DNA of 64,000 nt from an uncultured cyanobacterium. Lineage in GTDB: Bacteria; Cyanobacteriota; Cyanobacteriia; Cyanobacteriales; CAWCAG01. Position 1 is the first letter of the stretch, and each line of letters begins with the position of its first letter. Position numbers and translations under genes: made by a program. The notes under the pieces were generated by a model. It was not told the DNA's origin. It worked only from the letters and a program-made list of their open reading frames with translations, and searched no databases. Of this stretch, positions 15,555 to 37,069 are shown one piece after another. The DNA is taken from positions 64,001 through 128,000 of the forward strand of contig CAWDOD010000009.1 of the NCBI GenBank assembly GCA_963803805.1, written 5' to 3'.

Positions 15555-15638
15555 TGCCCTCCTTTTTATGCAGCTATCCCCGGATTTGCTATATATTTTA
15601 ATATTTGTTAATAATTTGCAATAGCTAAATCACTTCTC

Positions 15639-19239: not shown

Positions 19240-21069
19240 ATGGAAATAACTACTTATTTAAGCAATACCAAGTATGAAATTCAAACTTTTGTAGAGCTAC
19301 TAAATTATAGAGGGCAAAATCAGCCTGATACAATAGCCTATACCTTTTTGAAGGATGGAGAAACACAGGTAAATACGCTAACTTATCAAGAATTAGATAA
19401 ACAGGCACGGGCGATCGCTGCTACGCTTCAAAGTCTCGTTTTTACTGGTTCCCGCGCCTTACTACTCTACCCATCAGGTTTAGAGTTTATTAATGCTTTT
19501 TTTGGGTGTTTGTATGCTGGGGTTATAGCTGTTCCTGCATATCTACCCCGACGCAACCAGAATATGTCTAGGTTACAAGCGATTATAGCTTCTTCACAGG
19601 CAGCAGTAGCACTGACTACAACCTCTTCCTTGGACTATCTCGAAAGCCGCTTCACTAAAGAGCCAGAATTAGCTCAGTTACCTTGGATAACTACGGATAA
19701 TATTGCTAGCGACCAAGCTCAAGCTTGGCGGCAACCGGACATAAAAAGCACTACCCTAGCGCTTCTTCAGTACACATCAGGTTCAACTGGTACACCAAAA
19801 GGGGTGATGGTTAGCCATAGCAATTTGCTACACAATGCTGCTTCAATCAACGAAAGTTTTGACGATACACCCAATAGTCAGGGGGTCATTTGGCTACCTC
19901 ACTACCACGATATGGGATTAATTGGAGGAATACTGCAACCTCTCTATATTGGTATGCCAACAGTTTTAATGCCAGCCACAATGTTTATACAAAAGCCTTG
20001 GCGCTGGTTACAGGCAATTTCCCGCTACAACGCAACCACTAGCGGCGGACCAAATTTTGCCTATGACCTTTGTATTCGTAAGATTACTCCTGAACAAAGG
20101 GCAAGTCTTGACTTAAGTAGCTGGGAAGTAGCTTTTACCGGGGCTGAACCCATTCGTGCTGAAACCTTAGAGCAGTTTGCTGCTACGTTTGCTGATTGTG
20201 GTTTTCGACGAGAGGCATTTCATCCCTGTTACGGAATGGCAGAAACAACTTTGATGGTTTCGGGGGGTTTGAGAAATACTCCACCCATTATTCGCCAAGT
20301 TAATGGGGAAGCACTTGAACGAAATCAAGTTGTGACAGCCACGAGTAAGCAAGAAATCACTCGCACAATAGTTAGCTGTGGTCAGGGTTTATTAGACCAA
20401 AAAATTGTGATTGTTGACCCTCAATCCCTAACTCCTTGTCCTCCTAACAGAGTGGGGGAGATTTGGATATCAGGTTTGAGTGTGGCTCAAGGCTATTGGA
20501 ATCAGCAGAAGGAAACAGAACAGACATTTCATGGCAATCTAGGGAATACGGATGACAGAACTTTTCTACGGACAGGGGATTTGGGATTTGTACAGGATGG
20601 TGAGTTATTTATTACCGGGCGCATTAAAGATGTGATTATCATCCGAGGACGAAACCATTATCCTCAAGACATTGAACTGACCGTAGAGAAGAGCCATGCA
20701 GCACTAAAGTCTGGTTGTGGAGCAGCATTTGCAGTAGAAGTAAAGGGTGAAGAGCGACTGGTAGTTGTTCAAGAGGTGGAACGGAGTTACCTACGGAAGC
20801 TGAATGCAAATGAGGTAATAGAGAGTATCCGTCGGGCTGTGACAGCAGAACACGCCCTACAGCTTTATGCAATAGTTCTAGTTAAGACTGGGAGTATCCC
20901 TAAGACTTCAAGTGGCAAGATTCAGCGCCACATATGTCGGTATAGATTTCTAACTGGAAGCTTGAATGTGGTAGGAGATTGGAGTCAAACGGCTCAGGGC
21001 AAATCGAAATTCATTCATCTACAAGTTGAGGTCGAATCTATGTTGAAGGAACTATCAACTAGTTTGTGA
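19240..21069 (+). CDS. Fatty acyl-AMP ligase (FAAL)
   Basis: LQYTSGSTGTPKGV, WLPHYHDMGLIG, CYGMAETTL followed by FAAL insertion, LRTGDLGF, IPKTSSGKIQR. Confidence 0.95.
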   Translation: MEITTYLSNTKYEIQTFVELLNYRGQNQPDTIAYTFLKDGETQVNTLTYQELDKQARAIAATLQSLVFTGSRALLLYPSGLEFINAFFGCLYAGVIAVPAYLPRRNQNMSRLQAIIASSQAAVALTTTSSLDYLESRFTKEPELAQLPWITTDNIASDQAQAWRQPDIKSTTLALLQYTSGSTGTPKGVMVSHSNLLHNAASINESFDDTPNSQGVIWLPHYHDMGLIGGILQPLYIGMPTVLMPATMFIQKPWRWLQAISRYNATTSGGPNFAYDLCIRKITPEQRASLDLSSWEVAFTGAEPIRAETLEQFAATFADCGFRREAFHPCYGMAETTLMVSGGLRNTPPIIRQVNGEALERNQVVTATSKQEITRTIVSCGQGLLDQKIVIVDPQSLTPCPPNRVGEIWISGLSVAQGYWNQQKETEQTFHGNLGNTDDRTFLRTGDLGFVQDGELFITGRIKDVIIIRGRNHYPQDIELTVEKSHAALKSGCGAAFAVEVKGEERLVVVQEVERSYLRKLNANEVIESIRRAVTAEHALQLYAIVLVKTGSIPKTSSGKIQRHICRYRFLTGSLNVVGDWSQTAQGKSKFIHLQVEVESMLKELSTSL

Positions 21070-21173
21070 GAAAGGGAGTGCTTTTGTAACGGCGAAATAA
21101 ATAGTGTTTGCTCTTTAAGCGAACAAGAGTCACAAGAATGAAAAGCTAATCCAAATAATTAAGGGTTTAAACA

Positions 21174-21509
21174 ATGGAAAATCAGGGTTTCCAAAAAATG
21201 GCATCTTCAGGTTCAGCAGGCTTTCTAACTACTATTCAAGACAATGTAAGCAAGAATCCACTAACAGCGACAGAGATTCAAGAGTGGATCGTTTCTTACT
21301 TAAGCCAACTATTAGAAATTGATCCTGATGAAGTAGATATCACAGTTCCCTTCGACCAATATGGTTTTGATTCCTCAGTTGCTGTAGGTATGACTGGTGA
21401 TTTGGAGGATTGGGTGGGTAGAAAAATTGATCCAACCCTGCTATACGATTACCCTACCATCGAAACTCTCGCTCAGCATTTGGTCGAGGAGTTCAAGACC
21501 AAAGAGTAG
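21174..21509 (+). CDS. Acyl carrier protein
   Basis: PFDQYGFDSSVAV (phosphopantetheine Ser), PTLLYDYPTIETLAQHL. Confidence 0.93.
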   Translation: MENQGFQKMASSGSAGFLTTIQDNVSKNPLTATEIQEWIVSYLSQLLEIDPDEVDITVPFDQYGFDSSVAVGMTGDLEDWVGRKIDPTLLYDYPTIETLAQHLVEEFKTKE

Positions 21510-21575
21510 AACACCTTATATTAGCTGACTCAGAAATGCCACTTGTCCTTGCTTGAAGGTTTTTAGGAGAATGCC

Positions 21576-22967
21576 ATGAGCAATACCACTAAAGATTTAG
21601 GTTTACCAAATAAAAATTTAGTCCCACCTGATGGAAAGATAAAGAAACACCTCAAACTAGCTGCAATCACCTATCAGCATAATACTGAGTCTGACTTCAC
21701 TGAAAAAATAGAAGAACTAGATAGTAAATTCAACTACAGCAGTAATAGCAATGACTATTGGAGCGAACCCGAACTCTCACTGCTTTATGGTACTCCACTC
21801 TACGAGCAAGCTTCCTCTTCTCAAAAATTGGCTCTCAATCACCTTTACTGGGCAACTCAGTATAACCAGACGGCTGCAACCGAAGCAAATGCTGTACTTT
21901 ATAATCAGGTGACGGCTGGAGTTTTCAGAGCGTTTAGTGGTTACGAAGCGCTGTGCAAAGAGCTAGACCTTGAAACAGTACAGGAACGGCATCATATTCA
22001 TGCCTTTCATATGATGGGCTACAAAACAAAAAAGGCTTTGTTAGGTTCCACGTTTAATACTTTTATTCAAGGAAAGTCTTATAAAAAGAAGGATTCTTGT
22101 CGAGGAGTTATACCAAGACAAATATTCACCTTTAATATGCTAAGTTCACCTTTGTCAGGATTTCAGGAAACTGCCCTGCGTTTCGCCACCAAAAAAGTGG
22201 TGCTGAAAAATCCAGCTTGTTGCTATTCTCGGTATTTGAAAGAGTTGGAAGCCAAAGGTGAATCAATTCCTGCTCAAACAACTGGTTTGTTAGGACAATT
22301 AGCACCTCGGCCTTTTCTACAATTCTTCACCTTGAACTGCGGAACTTCACCTTTCTTAGCTTGCCTGTTCTACGTTACGCGCTTCATGGCAAATATGCTG
22401 ATTAAGAATTACGAATACCGCTATTCCCAGTATTATAGAGAATTGGAAAAGCAAGGGAAATTTATTCCCGCCCCACTAGCTGTTTCTCACTACCATCTTT
22501 TGGATGAGGCTTTCCACACCACAACGTCTCAACTAATTGCTCGAGAACTATACAAGGATTTTCCGAAGCCTACAGCCTACGAGAAGTTTTTAGCTAATCT
22601 AATCATCTACAGGGCGCAAGTCGTGGTTCTCAGTGGGCTTTCTGGGGGAATACCTGCAATCTTTCGGAATGATGATACGTTCATGCTTTCGTTCTACAGG
22701 CTGCTACAGTCTCCTGTTTTCAATATGTCTAATCGAGAAGCCTTAGAGTGGCTCAGAGTGTGTATGTGTCAAGAACATGAAGGGTTTTATCTCACTCTCA
22801 AATACCACCAACGCCTCTTGTCAGATCTCCGCCGGCTTTTTGAACCTATTGATTACCTTTGGTCTGTCAACCGCGAGATGAACATTATGGCCGTCGGAGG
22901 TGTAATTAGTAAAGCTATCTCCAACAACATTAAGGCTTTTGAAAAGTTTTCTCAAACTTTTGTTTAA
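21576..22967 (+). CDS. CylC-type dimetal-carboxylate halogenase (AurF/ferritin-like fold)
   Basis: YWSEPELSLLYGTPLYEQAS..QKLALNHLYW, LDLET.QERHHIHAF, SHYHLLDEAFHTTTS (two EXXH-type motifs); FAAL-ACP-halogenase order as in cyl/col clusters. Confidence 0.88.
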   Translation: MSNTTKDLGLPNKNLVPPDGKIKKHLKLAAITYQHNTESDFTEKIEELDSKFNYSSNSNDYWSEPELSLLYGTPLYEQASSSQKLALNHLYWATQYNQTAATEANAVLYNQVTAGVFRAFSGYEALCKELDLETVQERHHIHAFHMMGYKTKKALLGSTFNTFIQGKSYKKKDSCRGVIPRQIFTFNMLSSPLSGFQETALRFATKKVVLKNPACCYSRYLKELEAKGESIPAQTTGLLGQLAPRPFLQFFTLNCGTSPFLACLFYVTRFMANMLIKNYEYRYSQYYRELEKQGKFIPAPLAVSHYHLLDEAFHTTTSQLIARELYKDFPKPTAYEKFLANLIIYRAQVVVLSGLSGGIPAIFRNDDTFMLSFYRLLQSPVFNMSNREALEWLRVCMCQEHEGFYLTLKYHQRLLSDLRRLFEPIDYLWSVNREMNIMAVGGVISKAISNNIKAFEKFSQTFV

Positions 22968-23029
22968 AGAAAGTTCAACATTATGAATGTTTGAATTGGT
23001 TTGTTTGCAAATTAACTAGAGGTTTAGTA

Positions 23030-26000
23030 GTGGAACCCATAGCAATTATCGGTATTGGTTGTCGTTTTCCCAAAGCAAAAGACCCTGAATCCTTCTGGCA
23101 GTTGTTGCGTGATGGTGGAGATGCGATCACACAAGTGCCTCAAGAGCGGTGGAATATTGATGCATTCTATGACCCAGAACCCGGTACACCAGGAAAAATG
23201 AGTACCCGTTGGGGTGGATTCCTGGAGCAGGTTGACCAATTCGATCCTGCTTTCTTCGGGATTTCCCCTCGTGAAGCAGAGCGAATAGACCCTCAGCAAA
23301 GGCTAGTTTTGGAAGTCGCTTGGGAAGCATTAGAAAATGCCGGGATTGCACCTAACAAGCTAGCTGGAAGTCAGACAGGGGTTTTCATGGGAGTTGGTAA
23401 CTACGATTATTGCAGGTTACTAGCTAAGGATATAAATCTTGTAAACGCCTATGACGGCACTGGAAATACTCTTTCTATTACAGCTAATCGCCTATCGTAC
23501 ATTCTGAATCTGCGGGGGCCGAGTGTACTTATTGAGACAGCCTGCTCCTCGTCTTTGGTAGCATTGCATTTTGCCTGTCGGAGTTTGCAAAGTGGAGAAT
23601 CTAATTTGTGCTTAGTGGGTGGAGCCAGTCTGATGCTATCTCCAGAACCGTTTATCACCTACTCCCATGCGCGGATGATGGCAGCCGATGGTCGCTGTAA
23701 AACTTTTGACGCTAGTGCAGATGGTTATGTTCGGGGGGAAGGATGTGGTGTGGTTGTCATCAAGCGCCTCTATGATGCTCTCAGGGAAGAAGATAATATT
23801 CTAGCAGTTATTAAAGGTACAGCAGTTAACCAGGATGGTCTGAGCAATGGACTGACCGCTCCTAATAGCCTTTCCCAGCAGGAAGTTATCCGTCAGGCTT
23901 TGAAAAATGCTGAAGTGACTCCTGCTCAAATTAGCTACGTTGAAGCTCATGGTACTGGTACATCTTTAGGAGATCCCATTGAAGTTAAATCCTTAAAAGC
24001 TGTGTTGATGAAGGAGCGGGAGGCAGACCAACCCTGTTGGCTAGGTTCAGTCAAAACGAATATTGGTCATTTGGAAGCCGCTTCTGGAATGGCTGGTTTA
24101 ATTAAAGTAGTTCTTTCCCTAAAACATAAAGAAATTCCTCCTCACCTGCACCTAAAGCAGCTCAACTCCCTAATTTCCCTAGAAGGGACTACTTTTGCTA
24201 TTCCCACCGAGTGTCAACCTTGGTTGGCTGGTGCAGAAAGCTGCTTAGCTGGACTCAGTGCATTTGGCTTCGGTGGCACTAACTGCCACGTAGTTTTAGA
24301 AGAAGCTCCCTCTCAGGAAGTGGGGAAAATTCCAGAGCTAAATTCTACATTAGGGCAAAACTCTATTAAGAGCGATCGCCCTCTCCATCTTCTCAGTCTT
24401 TCAGCAAAAAATGAGCAGGCTTTAAAAGAGTTAGCCAAACGTTATACAGATTTCTTAGTTGCTCATCCTGAGAAATCCTTAGCAGATGTCTGTTTTACAG
24501 CAAATACGGGGCGATCGCATTTTGATTATCGCCTAGCTGTAGTAGCTGAATCGACTAAACCGATGCAAGGAGTACTAGAAGCTTTCACTGCTGGTAGGGA
24601 GACTACGGGACTAATAAGTGGACGGGTACAACCTAAGAAGTACCGGAAAGTAGCTTTCCTTTTCACAGGTCAGGGGTCACAGTATGTAGGCATGGGACAG
24701 CAACTCTATGACACCCAACCTATTTTCCGCCAAACCCTTGAGCGCTGTGATGAAATTTTACGTCCCTATCTAAAGCAACCCTTGCTTTCAGTAATCTATC
24801 CTGAATCAGGAGTAAGTTCTCTCCTTAATGAAACAGGCTATACTCAACCTGCCTTATTTGCCTTGGAGTATGCTCTGTTTCAGTTATGGAAATCTTTGGG
24901 AATAGAACCTTCTGTTGTCATGGGTCATAGTGTGGGGGAATATGTTGCGGCTTGTGTTGCTGGAGTATTCAGCCTTGAAGATGGTTTGAAATTAATGGCA
25001 GAACGGGGCCGTTTGATGCAGGCTCTACCTCAGAATGGTGAGATGGTAGCCGTGCTAGCAAGGGAAACCCAAGTAGCAAAAGCCATTCAACCCTACACTC
25101 AAGATATCTCAATTGCCGCCATCAACGGCCCTCAAAGTATTGTCATTTCTGGGAGACGTGAAGCAGTTCGAGCAGCGATCGCAGCTTTAAACACTAAAGG
25201 AATAAAAACAAAAAGGTTAACTGTATCTCATGCTTTCCACTCTCCTTTAATGGAGCCTATGTTAGCTACTTTTGAGAAAGTCGCGGCCTCCGTATCATAC
25301 TCTCTGCCAAAAATTAAGTTAATTTCTAACCTCACTGGAGAACTTGCCACAACTGAGGTAACAAATCCTCAATATTGGTGCCATCATGTGCGACAACCAG
25401 TAAAATTTGCTGCCAGTATGGAAACCCTTTACCAACAGGGTTACGAAATGTTTCTAGAAATTGGAGCGCGACCGACTCTATTAGGTATGGGTCGCTACTG
25501 CTTACCAGAAAATCTAGGCATTTTTCTTCCTAGCTTGTCTCCAACCCAAGAAGATTGGCAACAGCTTCTGCAAAGTTTAGCAGCATTATATGTACGCGGC
25601 CTACCAGTAGATTGGTCTGCCTTTGACCAAGATTATTCCCGTCGCCGCCTCCAACTACCGACTTATCCATTTCAACGGCAACGCTACTGGGCAAACATTT
25701 CTGAAGATAGTCCTCAAAAGTCCTTGTCTAAAGATAATCCACTCACTAATTTGCTACTCAAAGGCAATACCAAACAGTTAGCTCAGCATTTAGAAACCAC
25801 AGGAAAACTATCAAAAGATGAGTTGAAATTACTGCCTAAGCTGCTACAACTATTAGTTCATCACAATCAGGAGCAACTTAAGGTAACATCCATTGAAGAT
25901 TGGTTTTGTGAAATAGAATGGCAGCTACAGCCACGCAGATCCACCAACCATAAGCAAAACGGGTTCCATAAACCTGGTAGTTGGTTAATTTTAGCTGACG

Positions 26001-28909
26001 AGGGAAGTGTAGGACAAACCATAGCTAAGCTTCTTTACCAACAGGGTCACACCTGTATTCTGGTTTATGTTGGAGATGCTTACCAGATTAAAGAAGACGG
26101 AACATACATCATCAATCCTGCTAGTCCAACAGACTTTGAGCGTCTTTTCCAAGAAGTTGTAGGAAACCTAAATCCACCTTTACAGAAAGTTATTCACCTT
26201 TGGAGTTTACAGGCTCAAGTCGCTTCAGAATTGACAATCTCCTCTTTGAAACAGGCTCAAATTCTAGGTGTTGGTAGCACACTCCATTTGTTACAAGCAT
26301 TAGTGAAATTTAATCATTTTCCTCGGTTGTGGTTAGTGACACGGGGGGCGACACCAGTTGGAAGTAAACTTCCTGGAATTGCTCAAGCACCTCTTTGGGG
26401 ATTGGGTAAAGTTGTTTCTCTAGAACACCCAGAACTATGGGGAGGAATGCTGGATTTAGCTTTTGAGGCTACAGAAGACGAAGTAACAAAGCTTTTAGCC
26501 GAAATTCAAGATTATCAAGACGAAGATCATTTAGCTTTCCGAGAGGGAAACCGTTATGTAGCTCGCTTGGTAAAAAAGCCACTACCGGAAGTCAAAGAAA
26601 TTTCTTTTCATTCAGATGGTACTTACCTAATTACTGGTGGTTTAGGAGCGTTGGGGCTGAAAGTTGCTTGCTGGATGGTAGAACGGGGTGTCCGACAACT
26701 GGTACTCACCAGCCGCCGTGGAACTGTAACTCCGGTACAGGAAACCTTAAGACAACTGGAGCAGGCAGGAGCCAAGGTTGTCGTGGCTAGGGCAGATGTA
26801 TCTCAAGAAGAGGATATGGTCAGAATTTTTGAAGAAATTGAAACATCAATGCTACCTCTGCGAGGTATTGTTCATGCTGCTGGCGTTCCTGGCTACGAAG
26901 CGATTAAAGATATGAACTTTAACAGCTTTGAGTCTGTGCTTCGTCCCAAAGTAGAAGGGACATGGATTCTACATCAACTGACCAAAGGGATGAAGTTAGA
27001 CTTTTTTGTTAACTTTTCCTCTATTTCGTCAGTGTGGGGGTCTAAAGGACAGGCCCACTATACAGCAGCAAATTGTTTTCTTGATCTGTTAGCTCACTAT
27101 CGTCAGGGACTAGGACTACCTGCTTTAAGTGTGAATTGGGGGCCGTGGCAAGGTGGCGGCATGGCTGTTGAAGAATTTCAGACCTGGATGACTAAGCTAG
27201 GGATGGAAGTCTTGCAGCCAGAGCAGGCGCTTACTGCCCTAGAATATCTACTTGAAGCAGGCTGTGTTCAAACAACTGTGGCTAATGTTGATTGGACTCG
27301 ATTCAAAAGTATCTATGAAACACGAGGAAAGCGATTGCTGTTAGAACAAATTGAAGTAGGCGAAGCCACTGAGCAACAGGATTCAAAGCAACAATCGGAG
27401 ATTTTAGAGAAATTAGATGCAGCTTCGGTACAAGATTACTATTCCATTCTGGTAGCTTACCTTCAAAGCTTAGTTGCCAAAGTATTAAGGCTTGCCTCAT
27501 CTCAACTAGTTTCTCCTCAACAAGGTCTTTTTGAGATGGGTATGGACTCACTAATGACAGTTGAGTTGGTTGAATTGGTTCAGTCTCAGTTAAAGTTAAA
27601 ATTATCGATGTTAGAGGTTTTGCAGGCACATAATATTGATAAGTTAGCTAAGCTATTACTTCAACAACTTGCTCCGAATATCTCCACTCCGTCTGCTACC
27701 GAGAATGAGTTGAATCTCACTCATGAGGCTGTTCTAGAAGATTCAATCACTCCAGAAAACGTCGATGTTGAGCTTGCTCAAATAAGTTCAATCTTTTTGA
27801 CTGGCGCAACAGGTTTCTTAGGGGCGTTTTTACTAAAAGAACTTCTAGAAAAAACCGATGCAAAGCTTTATTGTTTAGTTCGTGCAACCGACCCTACTTC
27901 AGGATTGCAGAAAATTTACAAAAACTTATACAAATACTCCTTATTAGAGGGGCAACTAAGTCCTAGAATTATTCCTGTTGTTGGCAATCTATCTCAACCT
28001 AGATTAGGTCTTGGAGCAGAACAGTTTAAAGAATTAGCTGAGGGAATTGATGTTATTTATCACAATGGAGCAGTTCTAAACTTTGTCTACCCTTATTCAG
28101 CTTTGAAGCCAACTAACGTTCTGGGTACGCAGGAAATACTGCGCTTAGCTTGTCAGTCTAAGGTTAAACCTCTCCACTATGTTTCTACTGACGCTGTGTT
28201 TGATTCGTCTGCTTATTACGGCAAGGAAGTCAGAGAATCAGAGGCAATTTTTCACGCAGAAGGAATTGACCTTGGCTATACCCAAAGTAAGTGGGTAGCA
28301 GAAAAATTAGTTACCATTGCTCGCGATCGCGGACTTCCAGTTTCTATCTACAGACCGCCTTTGATTGCTGGGGATAGTAAAAGTGGTATTTGGAAGACCG
28401 ATGACTTTACCTGCCGATTCATCAAAGGCTGCATTCAAATGGGAAGCATACCGGATATGAGTTGTGATGTTACCTTAGTTCCAGTGGATTATGTTAGCCA
28501 AGCAATCGTTCATCTGTCCTTGAAAAAGGGGTCGCTAAGCAGGGCATTTCACTTAAATAATCCCAATGCTTCTAGCTGGGATAAAGTGACCGATTGCATC
28601 AATGAGCTAGGTTATCCTCTTCGGACATTGCCTTATGAGAAATGGGAAGCCGAACTTATCGCAATAGTAGGAGCGAAGGAGAATGCTTTAAGTAGCCTCT
28701 TACCCTTCTTTTTACGGCGATGGTCACAGGAAAAACTAACTTTTGCTGGGCTTGGTCAAAGAAGAGTCAAACTTAACTGTAAAGAGACAATTGCTAGTCT
28801 TGCAGATAGTTTTATTAATTGTCCTGCCGTGGATTATCAATTACTGAACACCTATTTTTCTTATTTCAATCGCAGCAGTTTCTTAGAGACTCCCAAACAA
28901 CGGATTTGA
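23030..28909 (+). CDS. Type I PKS: KS-AT-KR-ACP-thioester reductase
   Basis: GTG start (VEPIAIIGIGCRFP) after AGAGGT; KS ETACSSS/EAHGTGT/NIGHLE; AT GHSVG and HAFH (malonyl); KR GGLGALG and YTAAN; ACP GMDSL; R domain FLTGATGFLG and YTQSK. Confidence 0.95.
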   Translation: MEPIAIIGIGCRFPKAKDPESFWQLLRDGGDAITQVPQERWNIDAFYDPEPGTPGKMSTRWGGFLEQVDQFDPAFFGISPREAERIDPQQRLVLEVAWEALENAGIAPNKLAGSQTGVFMGVGNYDYCRLLAKDINLVNAYDGTGNTLSITANRLSYILNLRGPSVLIETACSSSLVALHFACRSLQSGESNLCLVGGASLMLSPEPFITYSHARMMAADGRCKTFDASADGYVRGEGCGVVVIKRLYDALREEDNILAVIKGTAVNQDGLSNGLTAPNSLSQQEVIRQALKNAEVTPAQISYVEAHGTGTSLGDPIEVKSLKAVLMKEREADQPCWLGSVKTNIGHLEAASGMAGLIKVVLSLKHKEIPPHLHLKQLNSLISLEGTTFAIPTECQPWLAGAESCLAGLSAFGFGGTNCHVVLEEAPSQEVGKIPELNSTLGQNSIKSDRPLHLLSLSAKNEQALKELAKRYTDFLVAHPEKSLADVCFTANTGRSHFDYRLAVVAESTKPMQGVLEAFTAGRETTGLISGRVQPKKYRKVAFLFTGQGSQYVGMGQQLYDTQPIFRQTLERCDEILRPYLKQPLLSVIYPESGVSSLLNETGYTQPALFALEYALFQLWKSLGIEPSVVMGHSVGEYVAACVAGVFSLEDGLKLMAERGRLMQALPQNGEMVAVLARETQVAKAIQPYTQDISIAAINGPQSIVISGRREAVRAAIAALNTKGIKTKRLTVSHAFHSPLMEPMLATFEKVAASVSYSLPKIKLISNLTGELATTEVTNPQYWCHHVRQPVKFAASMETLYQQGYEMFLEIGARPTLLGMGRYCLPENLGIFLPSLSPTQEDWQQLLQSLAALYVRGLPVDWSAFDQDYSRRRLQLPTYPFQRQRYWANISEDSPQKSLSKDNPLTNLLLKGNTKQLAQHLETTGKLSKDELKLLPKLLQLLVHHNQEQLKVTSIEDWFCEIEWQLQPRRSTNHKQNGFHKPGSWLILADEGSVGQTIAKLLYQQGHTCILVYVGDAYQIKEDGTYIINPASPTDFERLFQEVVGNLNPPLQKVIHLWSLQAQVASELTISSLKQAQILGVGSTLHLLQALVKFNHFPRLWLVTRGATPVGSKLPGIAQAPLWGLGKVVSLEHPELWGGMLDLAFEATEDEVTKLLAEIQDYQDEDHLAFREGNRYVARLVKKPLPEVKEISFHSDGTYLITGGLGALGLKVACWMVERGVRQLVLTSRRGTVTPVQETLRQLEQAGAKVVVARADVSQEEDMVRIFEEIETSMLPLRGIVHAAGVPGYEAIKDMNFNSFESVLRPKVEGTWILHQLTKGMKLDFFVNFSSISSVWGSKGQAHYTAANCFLDLLAHYRQGLGLPALSVNWGPWQGGGMAVEEFQTWMTKLGMEVLQPEQALTALEYLLEAGCVQTTVANVDWTRFKSIYETRGKRLLLEQIEVGEATEQQDSKQQSEILEKLDAASVQDYYSILVAYLQSLVAKVLRLASSQLVSPQQGLFEMGMDSLMTVELVELVQSQLKLKLSMLEVLQAHNIDKLAKLLLQQLAPNISTPSATENELNLTHEAVLEDSITPENVDVELAQISSIFLTGATGFLGAFLLKELLEKTDAKLYCLVRATDPTSGLQKIYKNLYKYSLLEGQLSPRIIPVVGNLSQPRLGLGAEQFKELAEGIDVIYHNGAVLNFVYPYSALKPTNVLGTQEILRLACQSKVKPLHYVSTDAVFDSSAYYGKEVRESEAIFHAEGIDLGYTQSKWVAEKLVTIARDRGLPVSIYRPPLIAGDSKSGIWKTDDFTCRFIKGCIQMGSIPDMSCDVTLVPVDYVSQAIVHLSLKKGSLSRAFHLNNPNASSWDKVTDCINELGYPLRTLPYEKWEAELIAIVGAKENALSSLLPFFLRRWSQEKLTFAGLGQRRVKLNCKETIASLADSFINCPAVDYQLLNTYFSYFNRSSFLETPKQRI

Positions 28910-28932
28910 TAATTATTTCAACAGTATGAGGC

Positions 28933-30153
28933 TTGAACAGAATGAAACCTCTCAAAATCCACACTCTGGCTTTTTTAGTAACTGGTTTTCCTCCAGACGT
29001 AAGCGGCGTTTCTCACTTTAATTGGGAACGTGTCCAATGGTTTGCCCAGCAAGAAATGTATCGTGTTGTTGTCTTTGCACCTGATTGGCAAAAACAGTCC
29101 AATGAGTTATTGGGGTTGTCAAAATTAGAGGGGAAATTGATTATTGAACGCTATCCCTCAAAGCCTTGGCTTCCCTACAAACTAACTCATGTTCCCAAGT
29201 TTCGTGCAGCCCGTGAAATCAATCAAAAGTTAGCTGATTACCAACCCGACTTGATTGTTGTGACAGACGTAGAGCGCTTTTTCTTATTAAGTGCGTGGCA
29301 ATTGCCAGGTCAGCGTTATGCCAAGGAGCATTGTATTCCCTACCTAGCTGAATACCACACAGACCTTTACAATTTTTCAGCCGCTTATCCAGGTTGGCAG
29401 TGGTTACGAAAGCTGGTTCGTAGTTCTCATTTAGTAAGTTATTTATATAGTGATATCAATATGACAATATGTTCGAGTAATGCTGCTAGTCAAAGCTGTA
29501 AAGAACTGGGGATTAACAAAGTTCAGACGATTCCTTTTTTAGGCATTGACGTTTCCACCTATAGCCCCAATCGGGGTCACCGAAAATGGTTAGAACCTTG
29601 GTTGAGTCATCAGGAAAGGGATAATAAAGTCTTGCTTTTCTTGGGTCGTCTTGGTTTCGAGAAAAGAGTAGATTTACTCATCGAAGCATTTGCAAAGTTA
29701 AAGAGTAAAGAACCTAATTATTCTCTTCTTATCGCCGGGGATGGGCCTGTTGAAGTTGTAAACAAACTCAGACGCCTTGCTGAAACGGTTGACAACATCC
29801 ACTTTACAGGCTTTCTCGTTGGAGAAACCAAGGCTAATGTGCTGTCTTCGTGTGATGTGTTTTGCAGTCCTTCTCCTTACGAAACTTTTGGACGGACAAT
29901 TGTGGAAGCGATGGCTTCAGGAGTTCCGGTTGTAACTGTCGATAGCGGCGCGGTATCTGAATACATAATTCACGGTGTAAATGGATATCTCGTTCCAAGT
30001 GGCGATGTTGAAGGATTAGCTAATGGTATTCACAAAGCTTTATCAAGCGACAATACACAAATGATTAAGCAGGTATTGCGGGATGCAAAGCAGTTCTCCC
30101 TCTCTCAAGGCTGTCGGAATTTGCATGACTACTATCAGCAATTATTGAATTGA
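28933..30153 (+). CDS. Glycosyltransferase family 4 (GT-B)
   Basis: FPPDVSGVS, LFLGRLGFEKRVDLLIEAF, ETFGRTIVEAMASGVPVV. Confidence 0.92.
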   Translation: MNRMKPLKIHTLAFLVTGFPPDVSGVSHFNWERVQWFAQQEMYRVVVFAPDWQKQSNELLGLSKLEGKLIIERYPSKPWLPYKLTHVPKFRAAREINQKLADYQPDLIVVTDVERFFLLSAWQLPGQRYAKEHCIPYLAEYHTDLYNFSAAYPGWQWLRKLVRSSHLVSYLYSDINMTICSSNAASQSCKELGINKVQTIPFLGIDVSTYSPNRGHRKWLEPWLSHQERDNKVLLFLGRLGFEKRVDLLIEAFAKLKSKEPNYSLLIAGDGPVEVVNKLRRLAETVDNIHFTGFLVGETKANVLSSCDVFCSPSPYETFGRTIVEAMASGVPVVTVDSGAVSEYIIHGVNGYLVPSGDVEGLANGIHKALSSDNTQMIKQVLRDAKQFSLSQGCRNLHDYYQQLLN

Positions 30154-30176
30154 GCTAAATATACGGTAATCAAACG

Positions 30177-30998
30177 ATGAAACAAAAACATAGTATTTCT
30201 AGAAAACAGCCAGTTGCAAGTAGCTCCACTACTGCATTCACCGAAAACACGAAAAACCTTCAGGTAAAGGTAAGCCTTCCTGCAACATGGGGACTGGGAG
30301 AACGACTAGTTCCTGACCAAATGGCGTGTGATCCGACAAGTCGAAGGATTGTTGAGATTAATTTTCACCATTATGAAATTGCGGGACACTATGCTAGAGG
30401 AAAAAAAGTTTTAGACATTGCGTGCGGTGTAGGATATGGCAGTCAAATATTACACCTCGCTGGAGCAAGCAAGGTGGTGGGAGTCGATGTATGTCCAGAC
30501 ACAATACAGTATGCCCAGCAACACTACTCTGCATTTGGAATAGAGTTTGTTTGTAGTGAGGCAGAGCAGTTTGAATACCCAGAGCTATTTGATGTAGTAG
30601 TTTCATTTGAAACTCTAGAGCATCTTCGCTACCCAGAGAAATTTCTTGAACGTATTCGTAGTTACTTAACTCCAAAAGGTGAATTTTTACTGTCAGTGCC
30701 GTTAGGCGAAACGCGACACTTTGACCCTTATCATCTTCACAAATACACCAAAGGAGAAATCTTTGCTCTTCTTGAGAAAGCAGGATTTTCAATAAATCTG
30801 TATCGCTGTGACGATTTATTTTTGAGTTGTTCTGACTTGGAACATTGGGAAAAGCTTTATCCAGAGGCTCCACAACCATCAGTCTATGAGTTGCTGTTTA
30901 CTCAAAGAGGAAGAAAAGTGATGTATGACTTGATTTTTCAGGGCGGATTTAAGTTTCAGCAGCTACTTGTCAGTACTTCAGTAAATATTACTAAGTGA
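30177..30998 (+). CDS. Class I SAM-dependent methyltransferase
   Basis: VLDIACGVGYGS, VVGVD, FDVVVSFETLEHL. Confidence 0.92.
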   Translation: MKQKHSISRKQPVASSSTTAFTENTKNLQVKVSLPATWGLGERLVPDQMACDPTSRRIVEINFHHYEIAGHYARGKKVLDIACGVGYGSQILHLAGASKVVGVDVCPDTIQYAQQHYSAFGIEFVCSEAEQFEYPELFDVVVSFETLEHLRYPEKFLERIRSYLTPKGEFLLSVPLGETRHFDPYHLHKYTKGEIFALLEKAGFSINLYRCDDLFLSCSDLEHWEKLYPEAPQPSVYELLFTQRGRKVMYDLIFQGGFKFQQLLVSTSVNITK

Positions 30999-31073
30999 AG
31001 AGTTAGTAATTGTAAGTTTGCTGAAACAAAAGCTTCAAACCGAATCATTTTAATTTTTATTAGGAAAGCTCAA

Positions 31074-33143
31074 GTGCAACTATCAGCTCCATTACCTCAA
31101 ACCTATTCCCCCGGTAGCGATATTGCTGCTGGCTTTAGACCAAATCAAATTGTCTGGGGTCGCACAGGAAACGATACCGTTTTAGGTTCTTTACCTATCA
31201 GTTTTGATACAGAAGAGCCAATAATAGATGTTCTTTTAGGAGATTTTGAAATTCCTCTACTAGTAGATCCGGTTCCTCGTGATTGGAGTGACTCTTTTGT
31301 TTTAGGAGATTGGAGTCGAGCCTATTATGCAACTGATGATTTCTTTGTCACCCAGCTAGAAGACATCGGGTTGAACAATTTTGCTGTGATTGCTGACTTC
31401 AACTCTAATCTAGATTCCATTCAGCTATACGGTACTCCATCAGACTACCAACTAACGAGTTTTACCTTTGGGACTGCAATTTGGTCGCCGAGAACAATAT
31501 TTTCAGATTTTACCTATGTACCGGATGTTATTGGGGTTTTGCCGGTATTCGACCTAGAACTAGATGCTGATTATTTTCAGTTTTTGGGCTATGCTCCCCC
31601 AGATAGACCCGAAACAAGACAATCTCAACAGATAGGAACTTCTGGTTTTGATTTCTCTAATGCTGTTGCTGTAGATGCCTCCAATAACCTTTATGTAGCA
31701 GGGGTGACAACTGGCTCTTTAGGAGATTTTTTGAATTCTGGAGTTCGCGATGTTTGGTTAAGCAAGTATAACAGTGCAGGGGAATTATTATGGACTAATC
31801 AATTTGGCAGTTCTGAAACTGATTTTGTGATTTCAATAGCAACTAACAATGCAGGTGAGTTGTATTTAACTGGATTAACAGAGGGAGATTTAGGAGGTGA
31901 AAGAGGGGAAGGAATCTCAGATGCGTGGATTGCTAAATTTGACTCTGATGGCAACCAAAGTTGGATACAAAAGATTGAGGGAACAACTGGTCGTCCCACA
32001 TCTGGAAATAGTCTCGATATTGATGCTGATGGCAATATTTATTTGTCAGGTGTAACTGATAGTTTTAACCCTGAAGGGTCTGTGCTTCCTGTTTCGACAG
32101 ACTTCTGGGTATCTAAATATGATTCTAATGGTAGTCAGCTTTGGTTTCAACAATTAGGAATGCTTGAGGACGGCAGCGAGTTTGATGAAAATTACAGCAA
32201 TGCTGTTGATCAAAATGGCAATGTTTACTCTACAGGATTTACAACAAGCGATTTAGCAAGTCCTAATGCTGGTCTTTATGACGTTTGGCTGACCAAACAT
32301 GATACAAACGGTCAGCTAGAGTGGATTAGGCAATTTGGCACTGAGGATTATGAATGGGCTTGGGGAGTAGATACTGACAGCCAAGATGACATTTACTTAG
32401 GGGGATATACTCTCGGAAATCTTGGAGGAACTAATGCAGGTTCTTTTGATGCTTGGCTAGCTAAATATGACAAACAAGGAAATCAGTTATGGACTCAGCA
32501 GTTTGGTACTCCTGGAGATGACGAAGTTTTTAGCTTGAAGATTGATTCAAACGATAATATTTTCTTAGCAGGCTACACGGATGATAGTTTAGGAGGAACT
32601 AATAGCGGTTCTTATGATGCTTGGGTAGCTAAATATGATAGCAATGGAGAACAAGCTTGGATTCAGCAGTTTGGCACTCCTCAGTTGGAACAAGCTTACG
32701 ATATTACCTTCGATGATATTGGTAATCTCTATGTTACAGGAATCTCGGATGGCTCTTGGGGAGACTTTAATGCCGGGTCTTTTGATGCTTGGATAACGAA
32801 GCTCGACATAGAATCTGGAAACATTGAAGCCTTTGGTAATCCTTTGCAACCAGTGCCGCCAGAAGTTATCTTACCTCCTACTGATAGAGGTGAACCTCTA
32901 TTTACTGATGGGGAAATAGCTACTATTCTTGATAATTTTTTTCTGAATCTTTCTCTTGGGGGAATAAATCCGAGTCCTTATGCACCCTACACTCTTCCTT
33001 CCAACGAAATACCACCAAATTGGTATGTGTCTACTTCAACCCAAGTACCAGAACCATCTTTAGGAATCGGTATTCTTTTATTTGCTATCTCTGGGGTTAT
33101 TTCCAAGAAGGTACTAAAGTTTTGCATTTCACGAAGAAGGTAG
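31074..33143 (+). CDS. CylK/BrtB-like protein: N-terminal Ca-binding-type domain plus SBBP beta-propeller, with C-terminal PEP-CTERM
   Basis: GRTGNDT...LLGD...RDWSDSFVLGDW..YY...AVIADF...DSIQLYG; about seven propeller repeats (GSFDAWLAKYD..GNQLW.QQFGT); ends QVPEPSLGIGILLFAISGVISKKVLKFCISRRR; lies in a CylC-homologue cluster. Confidence 0.75.
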   Translation: MQLSAPLPQTYSPGSDIAAGFRPNQIVWGRTGNDTVLGSLPISFDTEEPIIDVLLGDFEIPLLVDPVPRDWSDSFVLGDWSRAYYATDDFFVTQLEDIGLNNFAVIADFNSNLDSIQLYGTPSDYQLTSFTFGTAIWSPRTIFSDFTYVPDVIGVLPVFDLELDADYFQFLGYAPPDRPETRQSQQIGTSGFDFSNAVAVDASNNLYVAGVTTGSLGDFLNSGVRDVWLSKYNSAGELLWTNQFGSSETDFVISIATNNAGELYLTGLTEGDLGGERGEGISDAWIAKFDSDGNQSWIQKIEGTTGRPTSGNSLDIDADGNIYLSGVTDSFNPEGSVLPVSTDFWVSKYDSNGSQLWFQQLGMLEDGSEFDENYSNAVDQNGNVYSTGFTTSDLASPNAGLYDVWLTKHDTNGQLEWIRQFGTEDYEWAWGVDTDSQDDIYLGGYTLGNLGGTNAGSFDAWLAKYDKQGNQLWTQQFGTPGDDEVFSLKIDSNDNIFLAGYTDDSLGGTNSGSYDAWVAKYDSNGEQAWIQQFGTPQLEQAYDITFDDIGNLYVTGISDGSWGDFNAGSFDAWITKLDIESGNIEAFGNPLQPVPPEVILPPTDRGEPLFTDGEIATILDNFFLNLSLGGINPSPYAPYTLPSNEIPPNWYVSTSTQVPEPSLGIGILLFAISGVISKKVLKFCISRRR

Positions 33144-33251
33144 TGCTTTTGATGAATGCAACTATCTGAAAGTAAACGTTTCTAACGTAGATGCGTTGAC
33201 TAGTTTCCAATTTTTAAATTAGTCCAACTTAATTTTTTAGGAGTTTTAACT

Positions 33252-35291
33252 ATGACTTTACGCGATGAATTAATAGAAGACAGATTCAGGGGTATTCAAA
33301 TTAGTGATTTACCTGATGTATTTGTAGGAGATACCAGTAACAATACTCTGGATGGAGATAGGGGAGGGGATGCAAACAAGATAACTATCTGTCTCGTAGA
33401 AGATCCTATATTTGGTATTTGTCTGATTGATGAAGAAGTTACTCTGCCTAATGGCGCTAATGACTTTATTTTCGGTTTTGGTGGCAGCGATACTATCCGA
33501 GGTGATATTAATGGGCCTGATTTACCAGGCAACGATATCATATTTGGAGACGGTGTTGTTGTTAACGAAGTTGGAATTGATGGAGACGACTTCATTAATG
33601 CTCAAGGAGGCGATGATATTGCCTTTGGTGGTGGTGCTGATGACACGCTCCTTGGTGGTAGTGGTAATGATATTTTGATAGGTGACTACCTACTTGGCTT
33701 TGAGTTTGCTATTCCTCCTATCACAATTGTTAATGACTTTATTGAAACTGGCAGCATCGAAGTTGGTGGGACTGGAAATGAAGGGAATGACTTTATCTCA
33801 GGAGGAGCAGGTGATGACCTTGCTATTGGAGATAGAGGTAATGATACGATCAATGGCGATGAAGGGAACGATTCTCTCATTGGTAGTGCTGATGACGACA
33901 TCATCAATGGTGGAGATGGAGATGATCTAATCATTGGTGACTATTTAGTGCCAGAAGGATTTTCAATATCTTCACCTGATGGGGATGAATTCACTATTGA
34001 TTTTGGTCCTGCGGGTAACGACATACTGTCAGGTGGTGCTGGTAACGATGTCATCTCAGGCGATGCTGGTATCGATACAGTGACTTATGCTCAAGATCCA
34101 AATGGAGTTACAGTCACTCTAGGTCTTCTGTTTATTCCGGGAGTTGGTAATGCTCAAGATGGTTTTGGTGGCAATGATCTTTTGTTCGGCATTGAGAACA
34201 TAACTGGTTCCTCATTTAATGATACTCTCACAGGTGACTTAGTAGGCAACGTTATTACCGCAGGCGCAGGGGATGACTTTGTATCTGGTGGTGAAGGTAA
34301 CGACACTCTCTTTGGCGAAGAGGGGAAAGATATCCTCAATGGCGATGGCGGTGACGATGTATTGAATGGAGGTAAGGGAGCCGATATTCTTAACGGTGGT
34401 TTCTTCGGCAGTGACACAGCATCCTATGCTACTTCAGATATTGGGGTAGAAGTAAGTTTGACCACAGGTACAGGTACTTCTGGCGATGCACGAGGGGACT
34501 GGCTGATTGACATTGAAAACCTCGAAGGTTCAAGGTTTGGAGACATTCTCACTGGTAACTCGTTCAATAACAAAATCTCCGGATTAGGAGGCGATGATAA
34601 GATTTATGGCGAAGCTGGAGATGATCAACTTTTTGGTCAACTAGGCGACGATTTCTTGTTTGGTGGATTAGGCAACGATGAACTTTTCGGTGAACAAGGA
34701 AGGGATGTACTCTTTGGTGAAGCAGGAGATGACCAACTTTTTGGTGGCAACGACCTTGACGAGTTAGATGGTGGTGCAGGGGATGACCGACTCTTCGGTG
34801 AAGCCGGCAATGATCGACTCTTTGGTGAAGCAGGGAATGACCAACTTTTTGGTGGTACTGGTAATGACACTATAGATGGCGGCACTGATGTAGATATTCT
34901 CTGGGGCGATGGAGGCAACGATGTTTTGTTAGGAAGAGCAGGAAACGATGCCCTCGACGGTGGTGATGGCAATGACGAACTCAACGGCGGTCAAGGTAAC
35001 GATATTCTAGAAGGCGGTCAAGGTAATGATATTCTAGAAGGCGGTCAAGGTCGGGATCTGTTCATACTTGCTCCTGGCCTTGGAGATGATACCATTGTCG
35101 ATTTTCAGGCTGAGCAAGATCTTCTAGGATTGAAAAATTATCTCACCTTTGGACAACTTAGCATTGTTCAAGGTACTGGAACTAATGCCGATAATTCCCT
35201 GATTAGTATTCAGGCTAGTGGTGAACTTTTAGCTACCCTAATTAATGTAGAAGCTAGTACTTTCACTGCTCAAAACTTTGTTGGTGTCTGA
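33252..35291 (+). CDS. RTX / haemolysin-type calcium-binding protein
   Basis: Many GGxGxDxLx nonapeptides; IENLEGS..GD.LTG units; C-terminal DTIVDF...LTFGQLSIVQG...LLATL tail. Confidence 0.93.
   Translation: MTLRDELIEDRFRGIQISDLPDVFVGDTSNNTLDGDRGGDANKITICLVEDPIFGICLIDEEVTLPNGANDFIFGFGGSDTIRGDINGPDLPGNDIIFGDGVVVNEVGIDGDDFINAQGGDDIAFGGGADDTLLGGSGNDILIGDYLLGFEFAIPPITIVNDFIETGSIEVGGTGNEGNDFISGGAGDDLAIGDRGNDTINGDEGNDSLIGSADDDIINGGDGDDLIIGDYLVPEGFSISSPDGDEFTIDFGPAGNDILSGGAGNDVISGDAGIDTVTYAQDPNGVTVTLGLLFIPGVGNAQDGFGGNDLLFGIENITGSSFNDTLTGDLVGNVITAGAGDDFVSGGEGNDTLFGEEGKDILNGDGGDDVLNGGKGADILNGGFFGSDTASYATSDIGVEVSLTTGTGTSGDARGDWLIDIENLEGSRFGDILTGNSFNNKISGLGGDDKIYGEAGDDQLFGQLGDDFLFGGLGNDELFGEQGRDVLFGEAGDDQLFGGNDLDELDGGAGDDRLFGEAGNDRLFGEAGNDQLFGGTGNDTIDGGTDVDILWGDGGNDVLLGRAGNDALDGGDGNDELNGGQGNDILEGGQGNDILEGGQGRDLFILAPGLGDDTIVDFQAEQDLLGLKNYLTFGQLSIVQGTGTNADNSLISIQASGELLATLINVEASTFTAQNFVGV
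34600..35055 (+). repeat. 27-bp (nonapeptide) RTX tandem repeats
   Basis: GEAGDDQLF/GEAGNDRLF/GGQGNDILE units; near-exact DNA repeats such as GGCGGTCAAGGTAAYGATATTCTAGAA. Confidence 0.85.
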
Positions 35292-36553: not shown

Positions 36554-37069
36554 ATGGAGAAAAGATTAGCTAATCTTTTGATTCGACCAGGAATAAAGCA
36601 AGATTTTGCAGCAGTTGCTGCTATTTATAATCAGTCTATTGCTGCTGGAAATAGCACGATGGATGAGAACTTTTATACTGCTAAGGATATGGAAGCGCGC
36701 TTAAAAAAATTCGATGAACGAGAGACTATTTTAGTTGCTCAAAAAGAACAGCAAGTTATTGGTTGGGGAACAATTAAAAAATATAGCGATCGCCCAGGAT
36801 ATAGATTTTGTTGCGAGACTTCTATTTATTTTTCTTTAACAGAAACAGGTCAAGGTTATGGTCGAATTTTACAAACAGCATTATTAGAGAAAGTTAGAGA
36901 ATTTGGCTATCACCATATTGTTGCTAAAATTTTTGCTTCTAATCAAGGAAGTATTGCTTTTCATCAGCAATTTGGCTTTGAGGTTGTAGGAGTGCAAAAA
37001 GAAATTGGTTATATTCAAGAAAGTTGGCAAGATATTATCATTATGCAGCTTGTTATGAACCGGATTTAG
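36554..37069 (+). CDS. GNAT acetyltransferase, phosphinothricin/methionine-sulfoximine acetyltransferase (MnaT/YncA-like) family
   Basis: AAIYNQSI, YSDRPGYRFCCETSIY, GQGYGR, NQGSIAFHQQFGFEVVG...W.D. Confidence 0.85.
   Translation: MEKRLANLLIRPGIKQDFAAVAAIYNQSIAAGNSTMDENFYTAKDMEARLKKFDERETILVAQKEQQVIGWGTIKKYSDRPGYRFCCETSIYFSLTETGQGYGRILQTALLEKVREFGYHHIVAKIFASNQGSIAFHQQFGFEVVGVQKEIGYIQESWQDIIIMQLVMNRI

Follow-up and report, generated by a model that had tools for sequence, protein, structure and literature searches.

A compact biosynthetic gene cluster is described here from an uncultured cyanobacterium (NCBI GenBank assembly GCA_963803805.1). It lies on contig CAWDOD010000009.1, in a stretch of 64,000 nucleotides (contig positions 64,001 to 128,000 of the forward strand) that is called the window below. 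Eight genes between window positions 19240 and 35291 very probably encode a pathway of the CylC/CylK kind that leads to a halogenated glycolipid derived from a fatty acid. In order, their products are a FAAL (fatty acyl-AMP ligase), an acyl carrier protein (ACP), a CylC-type halogenase, a polyketide synthase (PKS), a GT4-family glycosyltransferase, a methyltransferase, a homologue of CylK, and an RTX protein. The PKS has ketosynthase (KS), acyltransferase (AT), ketoreductase (KR), ACP and thioester reductase domains. The initial annotation of this DNA had proposed such a pathway from the same eight co-oriented genes. That reading is supported at the level of sequence: its gene coordinates are exact, and Pfam and NCBIfam agree on the domains.

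To our knowledge, no enzymes other than CylC/CylK pairs put chlorine on an unactivated carbon and then employ the alkyl chloride so made as an electrophile. We know of only three characterised reactions of the CylK family, which form a C-C bond, an ester and an ether.

In the pathway proposed here, the FAAL would adenylate a free fatty acid and load it onto the stand-alone ACP. The CylC-type diiron halogenase would then chlorinate an unactivated carbon of the acyl-ACP. The PKS module would add one malonyl unit and reduce the beta-keto group to a 3-hydroxyl, with no dehydratase to act on it. The thioester reductase would release the chain, most likely as a chloro-alkane-1,3-diol of the kind seen in the aglycones of heterocyst glycolipids. 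The GT4 enzyme would then add a sugar, and the methyltransferase would O-methylate a hydroxyl of the sugar or of the lipid. In the sixth step, the CylK-family enzyme would bind the alkyl chloride through Arg30 and Tyr402, and an oxygen nucleophile activated by Glu372 would displace the chloride. The favoured nucleophile is a hydroxyl of the lipid; the products would then be dimers or oligomers joined by ethers, like those of NglO. The main alternative is the carboxylate of a fatty acid, as with BrtB. The coupling would probably be located in the envelope, where the separate RTX protein would take the part of the RTX domain that NglO-type enzymes carry as a fusion.

We consider this whole six-step sequence, from loading by the FAAL to displacement of chloride by an oxygen nucleophile at the envelope, to be rather probable, and each of its chemical details to be much less so. 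Here we infer, from sequence, the product and the displacement of chloride, and with them the chain length, the chlorinated position, whether release takes two or four electrons, the identity of the sugar, the site of methylation, the nucleophile and the location.

The halogenase can be compared with its family residue by residue. Homologues of CylC share nine conserved active-site residues, seven of which lie in the motifs QExxH and HxxDExxH, according to the text available from PMC12101540. There, the Gln of the first motif is said to replace the Asp of AurF (where the motif is DExxH), and replacing any of the nine residues with Ala in NocO abolished chlorination. The window's halogenase has QERHH at residues 136-140 (Q136, E137, H140) and HLLDEAFH at residues 307-314 (H307, D310, E311, H314). 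The check covered these seven motif residues of the published nine, and none of the seven varies among 26 aligned halogenase homologues. Domain calls on the window's proteins were made with Pfam and NCBIfam and judged against curated cut-offs. By that measure, the Pfam family AurF reaches 23.1 bits, below its cut-off of 29.6, and covers residues 59-151 only. A reading of the protein as an AurF-type N-oxygenase was rejected, since Gln and not Asp stands in the first motif and the AurF score falls short. The protein is best filed with the CylC family, where the initial annotation had placed it.

The halogenase gene is single-copy in the genome. Directly upstream are the genes for the FAAL and the ACP, and this fits the predicted ACP-tethered acyl substrate. 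The FAAL matches Pfam AMP-binding with 234 bits and has a DIP2-like C-terminal domain. Its best stand-alone NCBIfam matches are FAAL families (PRK05850 with 463 bits against a cut-off of 775, and FadD32 with 454), all of them below cut-offs.

Among 6767 candidates, 827 homologues of the halogenase were found at E <=0.001, and the homologues include more than 100 metagenomic protein clusters. The best 120 of the 827 are all at least 64% identical to the window's enzyme, and none of these 120 has a specific functional name; those that are named at all are called "hypothetical" or "uncharacterized", apart from one UniRef AurF label. The same best 120 carry a precomputed Pfam label, PF28091, which is absent from the copy of Pfam used here. 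A newer release of Pfam may hold a dedicated family for these halogenases.

The CylK homologue is encoded 8 kb downstream of the halogenase gene, in the same operon, and the genome has one full-length copy of it. A search of the PDB matched it to CylK (7FH8/7RON) with E 1.4e-131 and 438.5 bits. This is a single alignment, residues 24-589 of the query against 99-662 of CylK, and it spans both CylK domains, the N-terminal calcium-binding domain and the beta-propeller. After these, the window's protein continues with a Pro-rich linker and a hydrophobic tail. What had initially been described as a CylK-like propeller protein is, in short, a two-domain homologue of CylK.

Equivalents of CylK positions were counted by hand on this alignment, with a numbering that reproduces Ser318, Trp320 and Asn334 as given in PMC8916777. 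Arg105 and Tyr473, which bind the alkyl chloride in CylK, correspond to R30 and Y402. The base that activates the nucleophile, Asp440, corresponds to E372; Glu374, on the resorcinol side, corresponds to S310; and Ser318, Trp320 and Asn334, at the second bromide site, correspond to F251, I253 and L268. Across 14 CylK homologues, R30, E372 and Y402 do not vary. Glu at the position of the base is described also for NglO (Glu428; PMC10849952) and for BrtB (PMC8916777).

Because the Arg and Tyr are kept, the base is Glu and the residues of the resorcinol site are replaced, the protein would be of the kind that activates alkyl chlorides, most like the O-alkylating members of the family and not of the paracyclophane type. 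The cylindrocyclophane pathway, of course, shares with the window the FAAL-ACP-CylC cassette and a CylK that aligns over both domains with Arg105 and Tyr473 equivalents kept (PMC8916777, as far as its text was available; 7RON, 7FH8). However, the genome, which is 97% complete, has no type III PKS (the CylI of that pathway) above cut-off, in line with the initial annotation, which had noted that no resorcinol-forming type III PKS is present. This absence and the changed CylK residues mean that C-C paracyclophane formation is not expected, and a cyl-type paracyclophane pathway was rejected on these two grounds.

An O-alkylating enzyme might, of course, use a carboxylate rather than a hydroxyl. 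Here, the same pathway would lead to the chlorinated glycoside, and a BrtB-like CylK homologue would esterify free fatty acids onto the chlorinated carbon at the envelope. The Glu base, being reported for BrtB as well as for NglO, is consistent with this. BrtB itself is described as secreted and associated with the outer membrane, without a signal peptide, acidic, Gly-rich and free of Cys (bioRxiv 10.64898/2026.03.17.712404, from the portion available). The window's enzyme shares these secretion-type sequence traits, being acidic, without a signal peptide and without Cys in residues 1-600. Nostochlorosides, moreover, also occur as fatty-acid esters (PMC10849952). Those esters are, however, described as sitting on a hydroxyl and not as products of NglO (PMC10849952). 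Further, BrtB has an Arg at the position of CylK Glu374, a residue proposed to contact the carboxylate nucleophile (PMC8916777), where the window's protein has Ser. We regard an ester as an unlikely outcome, and etherification of the NglO kind stays the favoured one.

The PKS is a single module without dehydration, as had been proposed, and its motifs are intact. The KS has ETACSS, with the Cys, as well as HGTGT and NIGH, with both His; the AT has GHSVG and HAFH; the KR has its Tyr and no LDD motif; and the ACP site is GMDS. The reductase domain has GATGFLG, the Gly motif that binds NAD(P), and YTQSK (Tyr-x3-Lys), and it is called as NAD_binding_4 / TIGR01746 with 351.1 bits against a cut-off of 213.35. 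No dehydratase (DH) or enoylreductase (ER) family of Pfam or NCBIfam matched the PKS. The interval from the AT to the structural subdomain of the KR holds 160 residues, too few for a dehydratase.

Three KS-family matches were found in the genome, namely this PKS and two open reading frames (ORFs) of the size used in fatty acid synthesis, with 430 and 379 amino acids (aa). The window's PKS is the only modular one. Since there is no other modular PKS, and no type III PKS, a single extension with ketoreduction and reductive release appears to be what the genome has the capacity to do. Thioester reductase domains of the TIGR01746 kind can carry out either a two-electron or a four-electron reduction. 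Release by a thioester reductase, followed by a glycosyltransferase that acts on 1,3-diol-type aglycones, is a documented end-game in the heterocyst glycolipids (PMC11804610, in the part available).

The methyltransferase has weak, sub-threshold NCBIfam matches to UbiG, to phthiotriol methyltransferase and to fatty-acid O-methyltransferase. Many cyanobacterial homologues are 46-87% identical to it. Seven of these (P0248, P0255, P0275, P0289, P0309, P0324 and P0341) have the same longest-contig sizes as homologues of CylK or of the halogenase, for example 233210, 72779, 46574, 11609, 18999, 10626 and 5842. The matching sizes alone hint that this methyltransferase family often occurs on CylC/CylK contigs.

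Much of the cluster recurs elsewhere. A scan with the halogenase, using one genome per species, delivered 17 related loci with 71-87% identity, from Coleofasciculaceae, Microseira, Waterburya, Calothrix, Scytonematopsis, Elainellales and others. Twelve proteins of the window were then compared by tblastn with these 17 loci, each including up to 10 kb of DNA on either side, and less at contig ends. The ACP was found at 16 loci. A FAAL stands beside the halogenase at 13; at 12 of these the order FAAL-ACP-halogenase is that of the window, and the thirteenth FAAL, at L010, is on the opposite strand. A PKS lies directly downstream of the halogenase at 16 loci (full-length with a reductase at 12, cut by contig ends at four), and a GT4 gene follows the PKS at 10, with 68-88% identity. 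The core cassette of FAAL, ACP, halogenase and PKS, with or without GT4, thus recurs in the genomes of 17 species. A CylK homologue was seen within 10 kb at five loci (L001, L004, L013, L015 and L017), and a methyltransferase of the window's type at one (L001, 86%).

All eight genes are syntenic in one other genome, G001, which holds L001; protein identities are 70-89%. There, the gene for the CylK homologue is immediately followed, within one contig, by that for an RTX homologue (70-75% identity). Given the synteny of all eight genes and the core at 17 loci, the arrangement appears to be more than chance, and a single operon is the best explanation of it. Judged by these comparisons, the window's cluster would be a compact variant of a common orphan cassette.

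The relatives carry further genes. An AraC-type response regulator accompanies the FAAL at five loci, standing between the FAAL and the ACP at L004, L006, L007 and L017 and on the opposite strand at L010. Divergent exporter genes occur as HlyD with FtsX/MacB at L006, L010, L013 and L015, and as FtsX/MacB only at L007. A free KS (L007), a P450 (L010), and a desaturase with a different methyltransferase (L006) are also found, and at L013 a thioesterase and a GT28-like enzyme replace the GT4. L014 has two tandem halogenase genes before its PKS (3-1103 and 1541-2821), which share 82% and 50% identity with the one in the window; this suggests double chlorination in that variant. In G001, the closest relative, a gene for an HlyD-family membrane-fusion protein (L022:2819-4048) follows the RTX gene.

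At its C-terminus, the CylK homologue has a tail that resembles a PEP-CTERM signal. After the Pro-rich linker come VPEPS, about 14 hydrophobic residues and an end rich in Lys and Arg. Such a motif is common to six of 13 aligned CylK homologues; two others of the 13 have a fused RTX domain instead, and two have a short C-terminal module that resembles the last part of the window's RTX protein. Two exosortase genes and at least 25 clear PEP-CTERM proteins are present in the genome.

In the RTX protein itself no catalytic domain was found. Over 432 columns it is 42% identical to the C-terminal half of P0014, a protein in which CylK and RTX parts are fused. In NglO, an RTX domain is described as fused to the CylK-type enzyme (PMC10849952). 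The window's CylK homologue and its separate RTX protein may thus be a split form of an NglO-type enzyme. The sequence traits that the CylK homologue shares with BrtB and the HlyD and FtsX/MacB exporter genes that flank related clusters count towards an envelope location, and the coupling step is probably located there.

Several observations weigh against the proposed pathway. For an obligatory cryptic halogenation, the greatest difficulty is the absence of a CylK homologue from the DNA examined around 12 of the 17 loci. This means that the core cassette needs no displacement of chloride, and that chlorine may stay in the product. Halogenation in the window might, then, also be non-cryptic, with a stable chlorinated (and perhaps methylated) glycolipid as product, and with the CylK homologue and the RTX protein acting elsewhere or serving as accessory surface proteins. 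The window's CylK homologue shares 89% identity with that of L001 and 45-51% with the CylK homologues at L004, L013, L015 and L017, lower than the 60-82% of the core enzymes across loci, which suggests that it was recruited separately. In Nostoc, chlorinated monomers are reported to accumulate (PMC10849952).

Against stable chlorination, the Arg and Tyr tied to activation of alkyl chlorides are kept. CylK homologues that have this pair are almost confined to organisms that encode CylC (42 of 53, as described in PMC8916777). In addition, the CylK and RTX genes follow the methyltransferase gene on the same strand, after gaps of 75 and 108 nucleotides (nt), and are syntenic in G001. We hold a purely non-cryptic pathway to be quite improbable, and displacement of the chloride to be the better account of the window's eight genes.

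Other points against the proposal concern single steps. The AlphaFold2 model of the halogenase is all-helical and has only moderate confidence (pLDDT 69.7), and Foldseek against the pdb set found no match to it at E <=0.001. The top matches were mostly ferritin-like diiron proteins (RNR R2, CmlI, AurF), with probabilities of 0.98-1.0 and weak E values of 0.03-0.13; a sequence search of the PDB with the halogenase gave no match at E up to 1. This test of a ferritin-like diiron fold is weakly supportive of membership in the CylC family. The use of malonyl-CoA is read from the HAFH motif of the AT by a general rule that is presumed to hold here. The type and stereochemistry of the KR would likewise be read from its absent LDD motif by a general rule only.

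The sequence of the reductase does not tell release as an aldehyde from release as an alcohol. The reductase might stop at the aldehyde and give a lipid derived from a 3-hydroxy aldehyde (for example by cyclisation or condensation), with the 3-hydroxyl or some other acceptor as the target of the GT4 enzyme, and the domain and motif data do fit either degree of reduction. Yet neither the operon nor its neighbours encode an aminotransferase, a second reductase or a condensing enzyme, and the GT4 that follows the PKS at 10 of the 17 loci fits an alcohol as acceptor, like that of the heterocyst glycolipids (PMC11804610). Release as an aldehyde is very improbable, and the 1,3-diol remains preferred.

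The envelope location has its own difficulties. The cluster has neither an exporter nor a regulator of its own, unlike most of its relatives, and the genome's nearest HlyD homologue is 47% identical and on another contig (G000:C8:53991-55169). The isolated tail of the CylK homologue scores 13.2 bits against TIGR02595 (E 0.13), below the cut-off of 16 bits, and is not among the 27 genome-wide matches to that model. Against a genome-specific model built from 25 of the genome's own tails, which themselves score 38-55 bits, it reaches 14.0 bits (E 0.011) and rank 30 of 5420 frame ends. Nor does the CylK homologue have a hydrophobic N-terminal segment or a signal peptide: 19-residue hydropathy rises to no more than 0.85 over the first 40 positions of the sliding frame, while the tail reaches 1.87.

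Among characterised systems, the closest is the ngl (pks3; Npun_R3355-Npun_F3373) cluster for nostochlorosides in Nostoc punctiforme ATCC 29133, which follows the same logic with another architecture. The initial annotation had judged its cluster to be conceptually nearest to this type, and the likeness holds along with clear differences. The comparison was made with published descriptions and not with the sequences of the Ngl proteins. Common to both are a FAAL that activates a starter fatty acid, a homologue of CylC, a glycosyltransferase, a sugar lipid with O-methylation (predicted for the window), a CylK homologue with Arg, Tyr and Glu, and an associated RTX sequence, and both lack a resorcinol-forming enzyme. 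The ngl cluster, as described in the part of PMC10849952 available, covers 36,029 bp (NglA-NglR); DH, ER and an inactive KS* are among its PKS domains, and the figure legend names no reductase domain. Its product is a C21 chloro-lipid with 6-O-methylgulose, which NglO etherifies into oligomers; a sugar epimerase, NglK, is present, and the C21 chain carries a vicinal diol and is thought to arise by cleavage of a longer chain (PMC10849952). In contrast, the window's cluster has 16 kb, eight genes and one KS-AT-KR-ACP-reductase module that releases its product reductively, without DH or ER. It also has no separate epimerase gene, an RTX protein in an ORF of its own, and a PEP-CTERM-like (sub-threshold) tail on its CylK homologue.

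The bartoloside system (BrtJ/BrtB) resembles the pathway predicted for the window in having a chlorinated glycolipid as substrate, O-alkylation by a CylK homologue and a Glu base (PMC7081238, in part). It shares also secretion-type traits and a C-terminal anchor region (bioRxiv 10.64898/2026.03.17.712404). Dialkylresorcinol genes of the DarA/DarB type are, however, absent from the window's operon, as the initial annotation had said of DAR enzymes, and the Arg of BrtB is replaced by Ser. Heterocyst glycolipid (hgl) systems share release by a thioester reductase to a 1,3-diol-type aglycone with glycosylation last, as well as HlyD/ABC-type exporters, which are seen beside the loci related to the window (PMC11804610). 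Neither the PUFA-synthase-like set HglE/F/G/D/C nor a long C26-C28 chain belongs to the window's system, and the hgl system itself has no halogenase or CylK homologue. A reading of the cluster as an hgl island was rejected, as it holds no genes for a PUFA-type synthase.

Clusters with CylC, CylK, FAALs and type I PKSs whose products have not been assigned are themselves recognised, and have been flagged as unexplored (PMC8406957, PMC8916777, PMC7081238 and also PMC10849952, each in the part available). Nearest to the window is the orphan "type I PKS" class of CylC clusters in filamentous cyanobacteria (Eusebio et al. 2021, PMC8406957), with a FAAL and an ACP upstream and, downstream, a type I PKS. 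The named members of this class, the chlorosphaerolactylate, columbamide, microginin and puwainaphycin systems, differ in that, as far as described there, none combines a reductase domain, GT4 and CylK. The portions of PMC10088813 and PMC12101540 that were available do not mention the architecture. Searches of the literature gave no product for it, and the initial annotation had likewise been unable to match the gene set to a characterised product, although the supplements of PMC8406957, PMC8916777 and PMC10849952 may show the architecture.

The features of the cluster are collected in Table 1. Spacing along the eight genes is tight, with intergenic gaps of 104, 66, 23, 23, 23, 75 and 108 nt. 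The neighbours on both sides are unrelated to the cluster. Upstream, on the minus strand, are a sigma-70-like protein, a DUF1822 protein and a giant TPS-domain protein; downstream are a GNAT protein, an SNF2 helicase, a squalene-hopene cyclase and gyrB. None of the flanking genes is syntenic in G001, where an amino-acid ABC transporter lies upstream and an HlyD-family protein downstream. Because the flanks are unrelated and non-syntenic, the borders appear to be sound; the GNAT gene at 36554-37069 was rejected as a member of the cluster, for want of synteny in G001. A scan found 24 promoter-like sites against 33.2 in shuffled sequence, that is, fewer, and 19 terminator-like sites against 14.5, near chance, so that it is uninformative on the ends of the operon. 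The composition profile has no compositional island. Among sequencing runs, a search listed one of metagenomic DNA that contains this stretch and none of RNA.

Table 1. Genes of the cluster, with the domains of the PKS and the tail of the CylK homologue, in window coordinates.
Feature	Position	Strand	Size	Basis
FAAL-like fatty acyl-AMP ligase	19240..21069	+	609 aa	AMP-binding and AMP-dom_DIP2-like (Pfam)
Free-standing acyl carrier protein	21174..21509	+	111 aa	Pfam PP-binding, 58.7 bits; GFDS phosphopantetheine site
CylC-type dimetal-carboxylate (diiron) halogenase	21576..22967	+	463 aa	QExxH and HxxDExxH motifs
Single-module type I PKS	22991..28909	+	1972 aa	Pfam/NCBIfam domains, active-site motifs
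PKS, KS domain	~23033-24154			
PKS, AT domain	~24656-25507			
PKS, KR domain	~26618-27151			
PKS, ACP domain	~27458-27658			
PKS, thioester reductase domain	~27791-28885			
GT4-family glycosyltransferase	28933..30153	+	406 aa	Glycos_transf_1, 142 bits; Glyco_transf_4, 34.8 bits
Class I SAM-dependent (probably O-) methyltransferase	30177..30998	+	273 aa	Methyltransf_11/31/23/25
Homologue of the CylK/BrtB/NglO family of alkyl-halide-utilising enzymes	31074..33143	+	689 aa	SBBP propeller; match to CylK in the PDB
PEP-CTERM-like C-terminal tail of the CylK homologue	33045..33140	+		TIGR02595, sub-threshold
RTX (beta-roll) calcium-binding repeat protein	33252..35291	+	679 aa	HemolysinCabind, 263.7 bits, 15 stretches

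Some of the surrounding genes deserve a word of their own. The TPS-domain (two-partner-secretion, filamentous-haemagglutinin-like) protein at 8076-15554 on the minus strand has 2492 aa and DUF5649/DUF5650 repeats, and its region has a strong local GC skew (-0.49 at 14001-16000). Beside it, also on the minus strand, are a DUF1822/HEAT protein (15639-17093) and the sigma-70-like protein of 585 aa (17136-18893). Directly upstream of the TPS gene, at 2048-8040 on the minus strand, lies a trio of DUF928, CHASE2-CHAT and TPR-CHAT proteins, which is a recurrent cyanobacterial set resembling signalling or protease systems. On the other side of the cluster, an ORF of 775 aa at 39013-41340 on the minus strand matches no Pfam or NCBIfam family. 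It overlaps by about 50 nt the start of the gene for the SNF2-family helicase (37145-39061, minus strand), and the two may form a two-gene helicase module.

Nothing known is overturned by this cluster. The widespread orphan CylC/CylK class is already in print, and the window adds a short, uncharacterised relative of the ngl pathway. According to its authors, the 36-kb size of ngl hampers heterologous expression (PMC10849952, in part). The version described here keeps the key parts in 16 kb, with one module and eight genes, and would be a far easier system. It could be used to learn the substrate and product of an etherification or esterification of the CylK type and the cellular site of that reaction, and to assign a product to an orphan cassette that is found in the genomes of at least 17 species of cyanobacteria and in more than 100 metagenomic protein clusters.

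A bolder version of the last step can be stated, and we think it distinctly doubtful. Here, the coupling would be extracytoplasmic: the chloro-glycolipid would be exported, and the CylK-family enzyme would polymerise it or tether it on the surface of the cell. The enzyme would itself be anchored by its PEP-CTERM-like tail (possibly after processing by an exosortase) and aided by a separate RTX partner. If this were true, the alkyl chloride would be a stable, pre-activated "latent electrophile", with which ether or ester cross-links could be made outside the cytoplasm without ATP. The cassette of FAAL, ACP, halogenase, reductase-bearing PKS and glycosyltransferase would then encode a previously unrecognised lipid layer of the envelope or sheath in non-heterocystous filamentous cyanobacteria.

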